Assembly (NCBI GenBank): GCA_964605685.1
Contig: CAZSDX010000010.1
Coordinates: 20,103-31,421 of the forward strand
Direction: 5' to 3'
Source: an uncultured Polyangiaceae bacterium
GTDB taxonomy: Bacteria; Myxococcota_A; Polyangia; Polyangiales; Polyangiaceae
DNA: 11,319 nucleotides
Below are positions 1 to 5,382 of this stretch, one piece after another. Both the position numbers and the translations under genes were made by a program. Each line of letters starts with the position of its first letter. Position 1 is the stretch's first letter. The notes under the pieces are model-generated. The model saw nothing but the letters and a program-made list of their open reading frames with translations. It ran no database searches and was not told where the DNA came from.

Positions 1-90
1 CTGCCCGGAGGCCGGGGGGTGAGGTTTCTCCTGCCCGGAGGCCGGGGGGTGAGGTTTCTCCTGCCCGGAGGCCGGGGGGTGAGGTCTCCC
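1..90. repeat. 3 x 30-bp perfect tandem direct repeat (ctgcccggaggccggggggtgaggtttctc), in frame inside the MTase ORF
   Basis: Read directly from the sequence. On the minus strand each unit encodes GETSPPGLRA. Copy 3 differs from copies 1 and 2 at two nucleotides (ttc to ctc, and tcc to ccc), and both changes are synonymous in the minus frame (GAA/GAG Glu, GGA/GGG Gly). The array abuts the window edge, so more copies may exist beyond it. Confidence 0.9.
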
Positions 91-1876
91 CCAACCGCTC
101 CAGAATCGGTCTGAGCGTTTTCTGGACGATGGGCCGCGTGAGCTCCGGCGGCGTGTAGTGGGAGCCGGAGCGGCGGCGCTCCTCGGTGGGCTGGAGGAAG
201 AGGCTGCCGGGGTGGAGGACGTGGGGGGTGCGAGGGGAGAGGCGGCGGTCGAGGGCGGTGAGCAGCTCGGGGACCGTGCGGGCCTTCTTGAGGGCCTCCG
301 CGGGCTTCCCGGAGAGCTCGCAGCGAGCCTTGTCCTTGAGCCATTTGGCGCGCTCGGCGGGCTTCGCGGCGAGGAGCTGGTCGAGATCGATGACGACGTG
401 CTGGGGGGTGACGGCGATGGCCGAGCCCGCGGCGCGCTCGACGGTGAAGCCCATCATGTTCTCGTAGACGGAGCCCAGGTGCTCGACGTCGAGGGTGCGG
501 TAGGAGATGCGCTCGCCGTCGAGGAACATCAGGTTGTCCAGCACCCGCAGCACCACGCCGTCGGAGAGCCGCGGGACGGAGGAGAGGCGCCGGTAGAAGC
601 CCTCGTCCTGCTGCGTGGCCTCACGGACGCGCCCCTCCAGGAAGGTGTACCGCTCGGGGTCGAAGAGGTCGCCGTAGCGGGGGGGCATGTGGAGGGAGAC
701 CTCACCCCCCGGCCCCCTCCCCATCGATGGGGAGGAGAGGCGCTGTTCTGCCTCCCCCCTCCCCATCGATGGGGAGGGGGGCTGGGGGGGTGAGGTTGAC
801 CCATCGACCCCGTGGTGGACCATGCGGAAGAGCGTGAGCAGCCAGGACCAGGCGCCGAAGCGCTGGCCCATGGTGTCGGGGTGAAGCCCCCGATCCGCCC
901 GGAGCCGCTCGTGGAGCGTGGTGAGGGCGTAAGAGCTGCCGTAGAGAGGCCCCTGGGCCGCGACCTCGCGCTCCTCGGCGTAGAGCAGGAAGACCAGGCG
1001 AAGCAGGACCGTGAGGAGGCCGCCATAGATGTCCTCCGGGAGCACCCCGCGGAGGAGCTTGCCCTGGGAAGCCTCGTCCGCCGCGTTGAAGCCCCGGAGC
1101 AGCTCGTAGAGGGCGAGGAGGGCCTGCTCGGAGAGCTGCTCGGAGACCTCGTTCTGGAACTTGCGGGAGGATTCGAGGAGGGGGAGGAGGCGAGAGCGCG
1201 GATCGCCCTGGAAGAGGCGGGCTGGGTCCAGGAGCATGCGCAGGGCAGCGAGGATGGGGCGGCCCGCGGTTTCCAGCATGGGCTGGAGGGGGAAGGTGAG
1301 GTGACCGGAGGCCTCGCCGCGTGGGGCGTAGACCAGGCGCAGGTGGGTTCCGTTGGAGAGGAGGCCGACGGGGATCTGGCGCTCCCGCAGCAGGCGCTCG
1401 AAGCGGATTTGGGGGCTGGTTTTCCAGGCGCGCTCGTGGAGGCCCGGGTGAGGGCGATCGAGGGCGGTGCCGGGGAAGAGGGTCTGGACCAGGAGGAGCC
1501 AGGAACCGGGCTGGTCCGGGTCGGGGACCGCGAAGGTGGGGGTGAGGCGATCCTCGAATTCGGGGAGAACGACGGTCAGCTCGTCGGGGAGGGGAGGGCC
1601 GCCCGGGGCGCCGGCCAGGTCGCCTGGTTCCCAGCCGAGGATTTCCCGGGTGAAGGCCGGGAAGTCGGGGATATGGACGCTGTCGGGGAGATCGCCGTGG
1701 CGATCAGGCTTGAAGGTACGCTCCAGGAAGGCGCGGAGGGCGCGCTGGAGGGGCGCGGCGTTCTCGTCGAGGATGACCTGCGCCGCGAGGAGGGCGGCAG
1801 GGGAGACGACCATGCCGACGGGCTGGACGAAGCCGAGCCATGCTTTGTGCGCTTCGAGGGCGAGATCGCGAGCCAT
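1..1876 (-). CDS. N6-adenine DNA methyltransferase, gamma-class (HsdM/PglX/Eco57I/DrmMI-like); first 625 codons only, 3' end beyond window start
   Basis: ATG is the complement of 1874-1876, sharing one nt with the helicase TGA (1876-1878). I translated the minus strand by hand from that ATG and found no stop down to position 1. The translation reads MARDLALEAHKAWLGFVQPV...RLVFLLYAEEREVAAQGPLY...EHLGSVYENMMGF...SGSHYTPPELTRPIVQ. The LGxxYE and xYTPxxV elements are the helical/motif X signature that precedes the AdoMet-binding motif I in gamma-class amino-MTases; motifs I and IV (DPACGSG, NPPY/F) would lie beyond the window, and motif X plus context alone cannot exclude another AdoMet-dependent function. 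The plus-strand ORFs 158..793 and 812..1903 occupy the same codon phase and have E/G/A/R-rich antisense-type composition, so they are shadows of this gene. Confidence 0.7.
   Translation of the reverse strand, partial: MARDLALEAHKAWLGFVQPVGMVVSPAALLAAQVILDENAAPLQRALRAFLERTFKPDRHGDLPDSVHIPDFPAFTREILGWEPGDLAGAPGGPPLPDELTVVLPEFEDRLTPTFAVPDPDQPGSWLLLVQTLFPGTALDRPHPGLHERAWKTSPQIRFERLLRERQIPVGLLSNGTHLRLVYAPRGEASGHLTFPLQPMLETAGRPILAALRMLLDPARLFQGDPRSRLLPLLESSRKFQNEVSEQLSEQALLALYELLRGFNAADEASQGKLLRGVLPEDIYGGLLTVLLRLVFLLYAEEREVAAQGPLYGSSYALTTLHERLRADRGLHPDTMGQRFGAWSWLLTLFRMVHHGVDGSTSPPQPPSPSMGRGEAEQRLSSPSMGRGPGGEVSLHMPPRYGDLFDPERYTFLEGRVREATQQDEGFYRRLSSVPRLSDGVVLRVLDNLMFLDGERISYRTLDVEHLGSVYENMMGFTVERAAGSAIAVTPQHVVIDLDQLLAAKPAERAKWLKDKARCELSGKPAEALKKARTVPELLTALDRRLSPRTPHVLHPGSLFLQPTEERRRSGSHYTPPELTRPIVQKTLRPILERLGETSPPGLRAGETSPPGLRAGETSPPGLRA
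699..796. repeat. 98-bp MITE-like GC-rich element bounded by 12-bp perfect terminal inverted repeats (ACCTCACCCCCC at 699-710, GGGGGGTGAGGT at 785-796) with two internal perfect palindromes (716-735, 20 bp; 754-781, 28 bp) centred on ATCGAT; lies in frame inside the MTase ORF
   Basis: Seen in the sequence. Palindrome 1 is cctccccatcgatggggagg; palindrome 2 is cccccctccccatcgatggggagggggg. The TIR motif GGGGGGTGAGGT also occurs once per unit in the 30-bp tandem repeat at 1-90. The minus frame stays open across the element and encodes low-complexity GSTSPPQPPSPSMGRGEAEQRLSSPSMGRGPGGEVSLHMPP. Confidence 0.75.
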
Positions 1877-1878
1877 CA
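1874..1878 (-). other. TGATG stop/start overlap between the helicase and MTase genes (translational coupling, same operon)
   Basis: Minus-strand bases at 1878..1874 read T-G-A-T-G. Confidence 0.8.
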
Positions 1879-4800
1879 GGTGAGGGATTCCGGCCAGAGG
1901 TAGACGACGCCAAAGGGTTCGACCCGGGAGGCCCGGGTCTCGTAAGCGGCGGTGATGCGCCTGGGTTCGGACGCGAGCTCGCCGTCCTCGCCGTCGATCT
2001 CGCGAGCGCGGCGCTGCCAGTGATCTTGATCGGCCTTGAGCTGGCGTTTTTCCTCGTCGGAGAACTGGAGCGAGAGCTGCTGCCTGGAGCTGCTGTCGAT
2101 CATGTCCTGGATGCGCTTGCGTTGCGCGAGGAGCAGCCTGCGCATGGCCTCGGATTCCTTTTTCCCGCGGTGCAGGAGGGCGCGCTCGGCCTGCTTTCGC
2201 GCGGCCTCCGCCTGCTTGTGGAGCGCCGGGAGGAGCTGCTCGACGTCGGTGGCGACGGCGGAGGCGAGCAGGCGAGCGACGTCCGAGCCAGGGGTACGGG
2301 CGCCCTCGCGGAGGCCCTCCTCGACGAGGCGCAGCGAGGCGTCCGGGGAGAGGTCGGTGGCGGGTTGAAGGGGTTTTTTGCGCAGGTCGAGGGGCTCCCA
2401 GGGGGCCAGGACCGCGAGGATCTGATCGTGGAGGCGGGCGGCGCGATCTCCGAAGAGAGAGAGGCGGCCCAGGAGGACGACGCGGCGCTGCGGCTCGCGG
2501 GAGACCACGAGGACGGCGCGGGCGAGGTCGTGGTAGACAAAGCCCTGGGCGAGGAAGCGGCCGAGCAAGCGCTGGACGAAGCGGTGCTCCAGGTGCAGGT
2601 GGACGGTGCTGTTGTCGAGGTCGCGGGGGGGATGGAAGGAGACGGAGCGGACCGGGAAGCGAGCGCGCCACTCGGCGAGGGAGACGCCGCGGGGCCGCGG
2701 AGGGCGGAGGGTGTCGAGGGTCTCGACCCAGGAGGCGTCGCCAGCGAGGTGGGCGGCGACGGCGCGGAGATCCCAGCAAACGCGGCCGTCGGGCGAGGTG
2801 GACTCGGCAGGCGCCGGGGCCCCGGCGAGGCGGAGGGAAGCCCGGAGCGCGGCCTGGAGCGCCCCTTCATCGAGGTGCAAGTAGTCCCTGGATCGGGCGA
2901 GGATCTTCTCCAGCGCTTGCAGGTCTTCGTTGATCTGCTCGGCCCGACGTCGATCCAGCTCCTCGTCCCATTTCTCCTGGATCCTGGCGTTGTGCTCGGC
3001 CTGGTCGAGGCGGTGGGCGAGCTGGTCCCGCTCCCGGTGTCGGATGCCTCCATCGAGGAGGGAGGCCAGGCGAGCCTCGATGACCTTGCCCTGGCTGCCG
3101 AGTTCTTCCTGGATGGTGAGGGAGCGGCGGACCAGGACCTTGAGGACGTGGTCCTCGGGGCGCTGGAGGAAGACGAAGTAGTAACAGTGGACGACGGGAG
3201 CGCGCTGGAGCTTGCGGTCGATACGGCCGTTGCGCTGCTCCATGCGGGAGGGGTTCCAGGGGATGTCGAAGTGAAAGAGGTCGGCGCAGTGGTTCTGGAA
3301 GTTGACGCCCTCGCGGGCCGCGTCGGTGGCGATGAGGATGCGGAGCGGCGCGGAGCGAGGATCCTGGTTGAAGGCGTGCTTGATCTCCTCGCGGGTGTCC
3401 TCGTCGAGGCCGCCGTGGAAGGTGCGGATGCGGTCCTCGACGTCGCCCAGGCCAGCGAAGGCCTCGGAGAGCTTGCGGAGCAGGTAATCCTTGGTGGTCG
3501 CGTACTCGGTGAAGAGGAGGACGCGGCGGTGACCCCAGCGCTTCCCTTCGTCGAGGAGGTGCTCCCGGATCCAGCGGAGGAGGAACTGGACCCGCGGGTC
3601 CGGGAGGTGGCGTGCGTGCTCGGCGACGCGGGCCATCTCGTCGAGGAGCTGGAGCTCCTCCGGGGGGATGGCGCCGACCTCGGCCATGCGGGTTGCTACC
3701 TCGATCTGGGACTCCTCCTCGCGGCGTAGCTGGTCCTCGGAGAGCTGCCCCTCGTCGTCGTCCGCGTCGGGGGCATCGACCAGGAGGCGGAGGCGCTCGG
3801 GGGCGATGGCCAGCTCCCGGTTGGCCTTCTTGATGCGGGAGTTCTTGTGGATCGCGAGGGTCGAGGCGAAGGCGTCGATGCTGGAGAGCAGGCGCTTCTG
3901 GAGGCCGATGACGGTGAGGACCGCCGCGGCCTGGGCCTTCTTGGTGGCGGCTGCGGTATTTTTTTCGCGGAGCTCCCGGTACCGATCCAGGAGCCGGGAG
4001 AGGACCAGCTCGGGGGCGTCGTCCGGGAGGTGATCGATGTCGATCTGGTGAGGCTTGCGCTCGGGGAAGCCGCCCGCGACGCGGGCGATGTCCCGCTTGA
4101 GCCTGCGGACGATGACCTCTTCGAGGGCCTCCTTGTCCTTCTTGCTCTTGACCGGGACGCCGCGGGTAAACCGCTGGGGGTCGAGGATCTCGAGGAGCGC
4201 GGCGAAGCTGTTGGAGTGCCCGTTGTGCGGGGTGGCCGAGAGGAAGAGGCGATGCTCGAAGCGGGGGGCGAGGTCGCGAACGATGCGGGTGAAGCGGGAG
4301 TCGATGGCGTAGCTTCCGCCGCTGGAGGGGGCGGCGTTGTGGGCCTCGTCGAGGATGAGGAGGGTGCCGTGGGGATCCTCGTCGAGCCAGGAGCGGAGGG
4401 GTCCGGCGTACTCCTCGTCGCGAAGGCGTGCGTGGGAGATGATGAAGCGGTTGTGGGTGGTCCAGGGGTTGACGTTGTACCCACGCTCCTTGCGCCGCTC
4501 GATGATGAAGGCGCGGTCGTGGACGACGAAGGAGAGCCCGAAACGTTCGTCGAGCTCGTCGCGCCACTGAAGCTCGACGGAGGGAGGGCAGGCGACGACG
4601 ATCCGGCGTACCTTCTGGCGCTGGATCATCTCGCGGAGGATGAGGCCCGCCTCGATGGTCTTGCCGAGGCCCACGTCGTCGGCGATGAACAGGTTGACGC
4701 GGGGGAGCTGGAGGGCGCGGCGCAGCGGCTCGAGCTGGTAGGTAGTGACCTGGATACCGGCGCGGTAAGGGGCCTGAAAGAGCTCGGCGTCGGTGGAGGT

Positions 4801-5091
4801 GACGCAGTTCCAGCGGCGAGCGTGGAGGTAGGCAGCGAAGACAGAGGGCTCATCGAAGCCGCGGCGCGCGACCTCTTTCCAGGAAGAACCCCGGAGGACT
4901 TCTGCATCGACCTCGACCTCCCAGAGCACATCCAGGGGAGCGCCCTGGGCGTCGTCATCGAGGCAAGAAAGAGACACCTGGGTCCAGGGATGCGGAGCCC
5001 CGCCCAGCACCCTCTCGACGAGGTAATTTCGAGCTCGAACCCGGACGATGTCCCCTTTTTTGAGGCCGTCGTTTTCCGTGGGAGTATCCAT
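1876..5091 (-). CDS. SNF2-family (DEAH-box, SF2) helicase/ATPase with long C-terminal extension; candidate DISARM class 1 DrmD-like
   Basis: Listed ORF 1876..5247. SF2/SNF2 motifs appear in order: I DDVGLGKT, II LLILDEAH, III FLSATPHNG, IV LLFTEYATT, V ILIATDAAREGVNF, VI QRNGRIDRKLQ. I prefer the internal ATG at 5089-5091 (MDTPTENDGLKKGDIVRVRARNYLVE...) as the start, because the 52 upstream codons from the GTG at 5247 are P/S/G/A-rich and not protein-like. The start is still uncertain between 5091 and 5247. The stop TGA overlaps the MTase ATG. Confidence 0.85.
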   Translation of the reverse strand: MDTPTENDGLKKGDIVRVRARNYLVERVLGGAPHPWTQVSLSCLDDDAQGAPLDVLWEVEVDAEVLRGSSWKEVARRGFDEPSVFAAYLHARRWNCVTSTDAELFQAPYRAGIQVTTYQLEPLRRALQLPRVNLFIADDVGLGKTIEAGLILREMIQRQKVRRIVVACPPSVELQWRDELDERFGLSFVVHDRAFIIERRKERGYNVNPWTTHNRFIISHARLRDEEYAGPLRSWLDEDPHGTLLILDEAHNAAPSSGGSYAIDSRFTRIVRDLAPRFEHRLFLSATPHNGHSNSFAALLEILDPQRFTRGVPVKSKKDKEALEEVIVRRLKRDIARVAGGFPERKPHQIDIDHLPDDAPELVLSRLLDRYRELREKNTAAATKKAQAAAVLTVIGLQKRLLSSIDAFASTLAIHKNSRIKKANRELAIAPERLRLLVDAPDADDDEGQLSEDQLRREEESQIEVATRMAEVGAIPPEELQLLDEMARVAEHARHLPDPRVQFLLRWIREHLLDEGKRWGHRRVLLFTEYATTKDYLLRKLSEAFAGLGDVEDRIRTFHGGLDEDTREEIKHAFNQDPRSAPLRILIATDAAREGVNFQNHCADLFHFDIPWNPSRMEQRNGRIDRKLQRAPVVHCYYFVFLQRPEDHVLKVLVRRSLTIQEELGSQGKVIEARLASLLDGGIRHRERDQLAHRLDQAEHNARIQEKWDEELDRRRAEQINEDLQALEKILARSRDYLHLDEGALQAALRASLRLAGAPAPAESTSPDGRVCWDLRAVAAHLAGDASWVETLDTLRPPRPRGVSLAEWRARFPVRSVSFHPPRDLDNSTVHLHLEHRFVQRLLGRFLAQGFVYHDLARAVLVVSREPQRRVVLLGRLSLFGDRAARLHDQILAVLAPWEPLDLRKKPLQPATDLSPDASLRLVEEGLREGARTPGSDVARLLASAVATDVEQLLPALHKQAEAARKQAERALLHRGKKESEAMRRLLLAQRKRIQDMIDSSSRQQLSLQFSDEEKRQLKADQDHWQRRAREIDGEDGELASEPRRITAAYETRASRVEPFGVVYLWPESLT

Positions 5092-5108
5092 CCGTTGTAC
5101 GAAGGTGA

Positions 5109-5129
5109 GGGAGGGATTGGGAGGGAGGG
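5109..5129 (+). other. Canonical G-quadruplex motif G3-A-G3-ATT-G3-A-G3-A-G3 (five G3 tracts, loops of 1-3 nt) 18-38 nt upstream of the helicase start; the mRNA 5' leader carries the C-rich complement
   Basis: gggagggattgggagggaggg read directly from the sequence. Confidence 0.5.
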
Positions 5130-5231
5130 CCTCGATGTCACGACATGAGACAAGGGCGAAGGATCCTCCGAGAGCGAGCCCGACGCAAGGAGATCCAACC
5201 TGTGCGGAGGGGCCTTGCGCCCAGGTTCGAC

Positions 5232-5276
5232 GGGGGAGAGACCTCACGCTCCCCCCTCGATGGCTGGGGAGGGGGA
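5232..5276. repeat. Degenerate third copy of the same palindromic element family (gggggagagACCTCACgctCCCCCC-TCGATGGctgGGGAGGGGG) in the helicase/vault-protein intergenic region
   Basis: It shares the GAGACCTCAC plus C-tract arm and the CCCC..TCGATGG..GGGGAGGGGG hairpin core with the element at 699-796. gggggag (5232-5238) and ctccccc (5249-5255) form a 7-bp stem. Confidence 0.55.
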
Positions 5277-5365
5277 CGAGCGTGTTGGGCGCCGCAGCGA
5301 CACGGGGGACGTCAGGGAGCGCGCGGGGCGGCGGTCGGTGCTAGCGTTCCGGCCTCGGACCACCC

Positions 5366-5373
5366 AAGGAGGG
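5366..5373 (+). promoter_or_regulatory. Shine-Dalgarno AAGGAGGG, with 9-nt spacer (5374-5382), upstream of the vault protein ATG at 5383
   Basis: aaggaggg ccaccgtcg ATG, read from the sequence. Confidence 0.7.
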
Positions 5374-5382
5374 CCACCGTCG

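Follow-up and report, generated by a model that had tools for sequence, protein, structure and literature searches.

An in-frame tandem repeat at the edge of a DISARM methyltransferase gene is very probably the reiterated end of a hairpin-forming DNA element

A tandem repeat that lies in frame within a methyltransferase gene may belong to the protein, as a linker of tunable length, or may be DNA that has entered the gene and is read through. This question is raised by the first 90 nucleotides of the window, by which we mean the whole 11,319-nucleotide stretch analysed here, from an uncultured Polyangiaceae bacterium (GenBank assembly GCA_964605685.1, contig CAZSDX010000010.1). TRF reports one array in the window, at 1–85, with a period of 30 nt, 2.8 copies, 100% matches and a score of 170. 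By repeat search, 1–30 equals 31–60 at 100% and 61–90 matches at 93%. The features at this edge are as follows.

Positions 1–85, minus strand: tandem array, at least 2.8 copies of a 30-nt unit, found by TRF and repeat search and cut by the window edge.
Positions 86–102, minus strand: host junction R-L-G-E (L595, G596, E597), 5' of the first ACCTCA core in gene orientation.
Positions 125–163, minus strand: motif X of the methyltransferase (SHYTPPELTRPIV), from the translation, with near-invariant columns S572–V584.

On the plus strand the unit is CTGCCCGGAGG-CCGGGGGGTGAGGT-TTCTC, with exact copies of the core CCGGGGGGTGAGGT at 12–25, 42–55 and 72–85 (+), one per unit. On the coding (minus) strand it is ACCTCACCCCCCGG plus 16 nt, read T-S-P-P-G-L-R-A-G-E. 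The minus-strand translation runs through ...SHYTPPELTRPIVQKTLRPILERL- and then GETSPPGLRA three times, and the frame reads ...SGSHYTPPELTRPIVQKTLRPILERL immediately before these three units. TRF and translation thus agree with the preliminary description of a 30-nt tandem repeat at 1–90 in frame with the methyltransferase ORF, and its coordinates, its peptide and the spacing of 22 codons after motif X (to the first repeat G) are all correct. Since the window begins inside the array, the copy number (three or more) is a lower bound, possibly affected by assembly. All three minus-strand frames of the array are free of stops and the DNA has 70% GC, so the open frame itself is uninformative.

The array lies in the second of two adjacent genes.

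Positions 2–1876, minus strand: N-terminal 625 codons of drmMI (PADLOC DrmMI, E 2.1e-162; Pfam MmeI_N), open to the window edge.
Positions 1876–5247, minus strand: drmD, the SNF2-type helicase of DISARM (PADLOC DrmD, E 5.6e-304; Pfam SNF2-rel_dom and Helicase_C).

The ATG at 1876 opens the drmMI frame, which continues through 625 codons without a stop; it overlaps the stop codon of drmD (TGATG), which lies directly upstream. The host had been taken for a PglX-like enzyme, a view that the DrmMI match (E 2e-162) beside the DrmD match (E 6e-304) corrects. Judged by these profiles, the host gene is drmMI, encoding the N6-adenine methyltransferase of class 1 DISARM with an MmeI_N-like N-terminal region, and the two genes are the drmD–drmMI pair of a class 1 DISARM system. 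The DrmMI profile hit is split into residues 1–356 and 389–598 (PADLOC), and 1481 homologues were found, the best at ∼54% identity. The rest of drmMI, with motifs I and IV (NPPY/F), is situated beyond the window edge, as are the far junction of the array and any drmA/B/C partners.

Beside the DISARM genes, a 962-codon ORF at 5215–8103 (+) carries Pfam domains of the eukaryotic major vault protein (MVP), with hits to Vault_3, Vault_4 (weak, sub-threshold) and MVP_shoulder (E 2e-9); an MVP-like protein is uncommon in bacteria. An ORF at 7113–9197 (−) has a complete DUF481 domain at residues 126–362, followed by ∼330 more codons, and shares ∼990 nt with the convergent MVP-like ORF, in the 3' third of the latter. 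The overlap could be due to a lost stop codon, to a sequencing error or to genuine overlap in high-GC DNA.

If the repeat were a native linker, orthologues would be the place to find it. We aligned 13 homologues, comprising 12 distant orthologues (∼50–57% identity) and P0001, the 99%-identical protein of contig L001. The orthologue consensus reads ...TLRPVLxRLGExPxPEQILDLKVCDPAMGSG(AF), with motif I starting ∼15 residues after RLGE. With the exception of P0027, orthologues that extend past RLGE have ∼9 residues before LKVCDPAMGSG, and the repeat is present in none of the 13 aligned homologues. P0027 carries an unrelated 45-aa insert exactly at the array site, which does favour a tolerance of length change at this point. 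The preliminary description had assigned the repeat to a native variable linker; with a gap of ∼9 residues between RLGE and motif I and 13 of 13 homologues lacking the repeat, comparison with the orthologues identifies the array as a lineage-specific insertion and not as a DrmMI linker.

The two nucleotide differences between units had been read as a sign that the peptide is under purifying selection. They occur at 86 and 89, where C stands against the T of units 1 and 2, and are synonymous, as stated (GGG/GGA for Gly, GAG/GAA for Glu). Both lie outside the TRF array, in the codons of G596–E597, which belong to the RLGE conserved among the orthologues and are most likely host flank rather than a diverged third unit. 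The third "unit" consists of 25 nt of repeat and of host flank that resembles the unit tail by chance. Being 3 nt apart, the two differences automatically occupy the same codon position, and the chance that this is the third position is ∼1/3. The synonymy therefore stands and the sign of constraint does not, and purifying selection on the peptide is left without support by two differences that are non-independent, are situated in the host flank and have a chance of about one third. The array proper is free of substitutions and thus carries no information on selection.

The nature of the inserted DNA is indicated by two further copies of its core region in the window.

Positions 699–796: complete palindromic copy, ACCTCACCCC...hairpin – spacer – hairpin...GGGGGTGAGGT, from inverted repeats, fold and alignment gap.
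Positions 5234–5278: degenerate half-copy (GAGACCTCACGC plus an imperfect hairpin), from repeat search, with a weak fold (z = −2.2).

The 98 nt at 699–796 form a clean 33-codon in-frame insertion in drmMI (residues ∼361–393), with no loss of the eight host residues that separate "HDG" from "PxRxG". The palindrome occurs in none of the 12 distant orthologues and is present in P0001. The core CCGGGGGGTGAGGT is exact at 699–712 (−), and a copy with two mismatches at 783–796 closes the palindrome, whose arms of 24–31 nt are 79–94% complementary over the 98 nt; for the array, a single end is visible. A 29-nt segment at 67–95 is 90% complementary to 689–717, and the six core hits in the window were reached by none of 200 shuffles. 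The earlier suggestion that the array is kin to the family of the downstream palindrome is supported by these data, the core being exact in all three units and at 699–712. By sequence, then, the array is a member of this element family. The element at 685–805 has a DNA fold of −54.5 kcal/mol (z = −10.4), and the array alone has no special fold (z ∼ 0). No target-site duplication is seen at 699–796, where the flanks GGGTCA and CTCCCT share no direct repeat. The half-copy lies at the start or upstream of drmD, in a region shared with the divergent MVP-like ORF.

Rfam 15 gives no hit at the gathering score in the window or in four family loci. Sub-threshold generic hairpin models (miRNA precursors) match 699–796, and an E-value search with sub-threshold matches included finds nothing at 1–90. 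In an AF2 model, which was built from a shallow alignment and has the methyltransferase domain missing, both insert regions are predicted as coil with pLDDT <50 (356–405 for the palindrome), each right after a helix (342–355 and 577–594); the second of these, after motif X, ends at the insertion point of the array.

The continuation of the gene can be viewed in part in L001, a 1.5-kb JGI contig that is 99% identical to the window and holds the same palindrome with a 6-nt in-frame indel. After the palindrome, in L001 1324–1531, a second core follows 30 nt on, and the contig then holds the reverse complement of a C-terminal stretch from the same methyltransferase family (AFGLVATNTIAQGDTRSTGLRW...VVHVGK). 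This layout implies a third, inverted copy of the element further down drmMI, starting with a core pair spaced by 30 nt; L001 itself would be a chimera of the assembly or else the product of a real inversion between inverted copies. The array is thus the second of at least two copies of the family in drmMI, and probably there are three.

When used as a query, the C-terminal DrmMI segment from L001 matched only ORFs of 68–94 residues (P0121–P0136), none identical, several of them on contigs of 0.25–7 Mb. This suggests that the C-terminal part of DrmMI is often fragmented or mis-called in other genomes.

We searched for relatives of the unit as protein and as DNA. A full HMMER search of (GETSPPGLRA)3 against 1.84 billion representative proteins matched only unrelated low-complexity repeats, and a protein-level repeat family was rejected on this result. 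A 44-aa protein query aimed at the far junction gave no candidates sharing words, and a second sequence of the junction was not recovered; an exact search for the 25-nt unit in the genome contig collection found no copy. No protein on record is identical to the DrmD of the window, and neither the window nor L001 is part of the metagenome collection. As DNA, the core is widespread. A metagenome scan for two exact cores 10–26 nt apart yielded 38 loci; they come from a wide range of environments, and their flanks have 41–73% GC. All 38 share one layout, which is also that of the array in the window: a hairpin CTCCCCCTCTCC-loop-GGAGAGGGGG, the core, and then one to three further units, each consisting of a spacer (often the hairpin loop and 3' arm) and a core, with distal units often degenerate. 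The periods of arrays with two exact cores range from 17 to 37 nt, and the arrays are mostly intergenic, with low-GC flanks. In the basic module, a GC stem of 10 bp whose loop is free to vary precedes CCGGGGGGTGAGGT.

A scan of a species-representative genome set for the 24-mer GGRGAGGGGGCCGGGGGGTGAGGT gave at least 120 loci. The matches listed include Planctomycetota (Gemmataceae/Fimbriiglobus), Chloroflexota (Anaerolineae, Dehalococcoidia), Hymenobacter and other Bacteroidota, Desulfobacterota, Spirochaetes, Armatimonadota, Gemmatimonadota, Bdellovibrionota and Janthinobacterium. In 109 of 133 modules the 5' arm pairs with the fixed 3' arm (no more than one mismatch in 10), and 70 different loops occur, which argues that the hairpin is selected as a structure. 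An inverted core lies within 160 nt in 54 of these 133, and the core is reiterated within 60 nt in 14 of them (∼10%), mostly in intergenic DNA. At loci with a flank GC below 0.60, all 28 single modules are situated outside long ORFs. The same core is kept in non-coding DNA, in both orientations and in different frames, and on this comparison the unit is conserved at the level of DNA. Peptide-level selection is likewise contradicted, since the core is equally conserved in intergenic DNA, in both orientations, in all frames and across phyla.

This distribution points to a mobile element. Three loci on contigs with the common accession prefix JFJP01 (L004, L006 and L010) carry identical two-unit arrays, which suggests that arrays are copied along with the element. 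The exact 24-nt module was also observed in 10 IMG/VR viral contigs (L163–L172), in which no DUF559 ORF was found; viral contigs are a possible route for spread between phyla. A core variant, GGGGTGGGG, is found in finished Sphingomonas plasmids, with no annotated feature over the matches, and indicates that the superfamily is wider than the exact core used in our scans. In the Sphingomonas parapaucimobilis plasmid NZ_CP155751.1 (L173, 1440–1535) an inverted pair, with hairpin CCCCTCCCC-TTCA-GGGGAGGGG and core GGGGTGGGG, occupies an unannotated intergenic gap, and matches occur at 1–11 places per Sphingomonas plasmid. The literature searched, on DUF559 and repeats, in-frame palindromic elements and small dispersed repeats, holds no description of the element, an absence that is not proof of novelty.

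Copies inside ORFs show how genes accommodate the element. They are read in different frames, as TSPPG, PHPPA, LTPRP, PGGEV or RGVR, and in-frame copies in recognisable proteins were found at L010, L026, L027 and L029 in addition to the window. At L010 the host is a hybrid kinase, with the array in the linker that joins its receiver and HPt domains. In GT4 glycosyltransferases (L026/L039, and two in L029) in-frame arrays occupy one loop, …SSLPEV–insert–ALLVDPLD, and the homologues carry 2, 2 and 3–4 units of 30 or 33 nt at this one site. Such variation is what a length-variable linker would show; it looks like tolerated variation in a loop. At L027 (11557–14712) a BREX PglX ORF that is open for >1000 codons at 57–61% GC has two insertion sites, and at the one 11 residues before LKLLDPACGSGHF (motif I) two full elements flank an in-frame DUF559 domain (Pfam E 5e-35). 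Another DNA methyltransferase ORF (…LVLDPTCGSGTTA…) was observed beside two tandem full modules (L056, 1–1863). Specific targeting of methyltransferases, which we had considered, is weakened by in-frame copies in other proteins, namely a histidine kinase, the glycosyltransferases and a membrane protein.

The periods of the arrays differ between the two settings. All seven validated in-ORF arrays have a 30- or 33-nt period (9/9 when the window and the third copy of L001 are included), versus ∼9 of 18 clearly intergenic arrays (hypergeometric p ∼0.01–0.02, the cases being partly non-independent). This contrast suggests that frame-neutral unit lengths are the ones that survive in genes, and bears out the earlier point that a 30-nt unit is neutral to the frame; copy number drifts in frame. 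The same contrast can be cited for a native linker.

Apart from ubiquitous signalling proteins, DUF559 is the only protein family that recurs near the 159 loci examined for neighbours. DUF559 is a Vsr-clan PD-(D/E)XK nuclease (PMC3424549). A DUF559-like ORF lies beside the core at 16 of the 159 loci, in 15 of them with the core within 140 nt downstream.

Loci with an adjacent DUF559-like ORF: L019, L022, L024, L027, L035, L040, L078, L093, L098, L107, L109, L112, L113, L125, L151 and L154.

These ORFs are usually bracketed by modules and are 40–48% identical to one another. Conservation is much stronger in the DNA core than in these proteins, which implies some constraint. A fixed orientation of the core relative to DUF559 was rejected, the G-orientation being present in only 10 of the 15 downstream cores. 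No transposase family recurs near the cores of the 159 loci, and no Y1/RAYT transposase cluster is found among the 1893 ORFs that neighbour them.

The element resembles several known systems and departs from each. The hsdS genes of EcoR124I/II hold a native 12-bp repeat between the target-recognition domains, and its copy number changes the spacing of the targets. As there, the drmMI repeat has a unit length that is a multiple of three, lies in a restriction-modification gene and can change copy number without a frameshift; unlike there, it is foreign DNA before motif I, without a known effect on specificity. Compared with an in-frame variable linker in general, the array is in an ORF and has a unit that is a multiple of three, but it is not part of the gene family at this position.

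Rickettsia palindromic elements (RPEs; Ogata et al. 2000) are, as summarised in PMC10969869, AT-rich palindromic families of ∼150 bp confined to Rickettsia. Like RPEs as portrayed there, the element is short palindromic selfish DNA that is found in frame in unrelated genes and read through at positions compatible with the fold; palindromic copies in frame in unrelated ORFs are those at 699–796, L010, L026, L027 and L029. Unlike the RPEs of that account, the module is rich in GC and mostly intergenic; many phyla share its exact 24-nt core, and its end is often reiterated in tandem. Given the hosts and the 70% GC, membership in RPE1–10 is implausible; the element works in the manner of an RPE and is very probably not one of them.

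With MITEs that have intragenic in-frame copies (ERIC, BOX and those of Anabaena; PMC10969869) the element shares small size, a non-autonomous nature, terminal inverted repeats, dispersed copies and occasional in-frame fusions. The copy at 699–796 is small, has terminal inverted repeats and contains no transposase gene. Unlike MITEs (PMC10969869), it has no target-site duplication, no transposase-encoding parent was found, and the recurrent neighbour is DUF559; and unlike lineage-specific MITEs, the element is identical in sequence across phyla. REP, BIME and REPIN sequences, mobilised by RAYTs (PMC3116915, PMC3733652), are similar in that a short hairpin, rich in GC, stands next to a conserved tag, and in occurring as singlets, inverted doublets and clusters that are mainly extragenic. 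Their tag, however, is GTAG or CGTC, where that of the element is CCGGGGGGTGAGGT, and REPs are species-specific, whereas the module is identical across phyla and also found inside ORFs. PARCEL repeats (PMC2996958) are, like the element, palindromic, translated and distributed horizontally among distant microbes, but they are selected coding repeats in surface proteins; coding by the element is incidental, in all frames, and most of its copies are non-coding.

Taken together, positions 1–85 are very probably the tandemly reiterated terminal module of a hairpin-forming non-coding element that was inserted in the drmMI ORF. Under this explanation the element, maybe of a subfamily whose end was already reiterated, would have inserted after the GAG codon of E597, directly after the codons for ...RLGE and ∼9 residues before the strand that carries motif I. 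The array may have been brought in with the element or expanded by slippage; reiteration is seen in about one-tenth of the family members, whatever their coding context. Further units could arise by slippage between short stretches of CTCC microhomology, found at the foot of the hairpin and behind the core. In genes, an insertion or a unit would survive only if its length is a multiple of three, and for this reason the array would be translated into a disordered loop, rich in Pro, Gly and Ser, that links the N-terminal region to the Rossmann fold.

Two insertions in the window and a probable third in one gene, together with truncated DrmMI homologues, also fit a gene in decay. It is possible, though rather unlikely in our judgment, that the insertions inactivated drmMI and that the array lies in a pseudogene, its open frame a by-product of high GC. 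Two insertions within 1.9 kb, a third in the C-terminal region (from L001) and an array without stops in all three frames agree with this, as do several homologues that are broken at or near the site. On the other side, the complete copy is exactly 33 codons long, the L001 variant differs by an in-frame 6 nt, the frame has 625 codons without a stop, and the analogous multi-insert PglX gene of L027 is open at a lower GC content. Furthermore, window and L001 differ in drmMI by 8 substitutions in ∼1150 nt, of which 6 are at third positions (binomial p ∼0.02, a test on 8 substitutions that covers only the region upstream of the array); the other two are conservative replacements. On this evidence drmMI still looks to be under constraint, and the array is probably translated. 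The pseudogene reading overlaps with the explanation preferred here, which concerns the nature of the array and not the function of the gene.

The breaks among homologues are of several kinds. Six DrmMI homologues, with the window counted, break or carry inserts right after the RP(I/V)L..L(G) helix. P0037 (L160, 5350–5385) has a hairpin/core-like sequence at the contig end and breaks at the array site; P0117 (L161, 6220–7620) has an IS630-type IS at or near it; and P0085, P0024 (L162) and P0027 also break or carry inserts there, the events including plain divergence and the in-frame insert of P0027. Some homologues are broken by frameshifts at or near the site, and many are truncated. The sample is biased in that the query ended at the array site, which may be a hot spot or a product of this sampling. 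The idea of a specific homing site before motif I was not adopted, given this bias and the heterogeneity of the events (IS630-type IS, divergence, hairpin/core-like sequence), and stays a lead.

Less likely still is that the array represents one end of a larger in-frame insertion with a DUF559 nuclease domain. The precedent is the PglX of L027, where DUF559 lies between two elements at the equivalent position, and the 16 of 159 loci with a DUF559 ORF beside the core (15 within 140 nt) point the same way. However, ∼90% of the loci are without DUF559, and the other drmMI copy is a 98-nt non-coding palindrome.

An assembly artefact, in which a de Bruijn graph loop at the contig end generated the tandem copies, is improbable. 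The window does begin inside the array, the copies are perfect, and L001 demonstrates that assemblies of this population go wrong at such elements. Against this, the same kind of array is found mid-contig in dozens of independent assemblies, on contigs of 180 kb to 2 Mb; L001 carries an independent core pair spaced by 30 nt; and finished Sphingomonas plasmids contain a related variant of hairpin and core. What does hold is the earlier suggestion that the array is a plausible assembly break point, as evidenced by L160, which ends, and L001, which turns chimeric or inverted, at such element copies.

The reading with which we began, a native, translated, variable linker whose peptide is under purifying selection and whose length is tuned by slipped-strand mispairing, accounts for an in-frame repeat with a 30-nt unit, for the insert of P0027 and for the GT4 and period data, but is largely refuted and very improbable on the sequences compared here, given a repeat absent from every aligned orthologue and matched by no protein repeat family, a nucleotide core conserved in non-coding DNA, and an array whose only "synonymous" differences lie outside it.

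What the insertion reading means at drmMI is that selfish DNA tolerated in a loop takes the place of a tunable methyltransferase linker under selection, and it yields a concrete prediction for the sequence beyond the contig end. The locus itself is of moderate interest, and the element family is the more interesting lead. For the family as a whole we put forward a tentative proposal, one that we would not yet expect to hold in full. The element would be undescribed and spreading horizontally, with a hairpin and CCGGGGGGTGAGGT identical over at least 24 nt in at least 8 phyla as well as in some viral contigs. In its autonomous form, two modules would enclose a DUF559 (Vsr-like) nuclease; short palindromic derivatives of it would populate intergenic DNA and, in frame, protein loops, and defence methyltransferases (DrmMI, L160 and the PglX of L027) would be repeated targets a short way upstream of motif I. 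That a 24–40-nt module is conserved almost perfectly across phyla calls for explanation. Were the family truly undescribed, it would represent, in GC-rich form and across phyla, what the palindromic elements are in Rickettsia: DNA that adds peptide loops to proteins (at L027 an entire nuclease domain), that disrupts metagenome assemblies at defence loci, and that offers a testable function for the large orphan DUF559 family.
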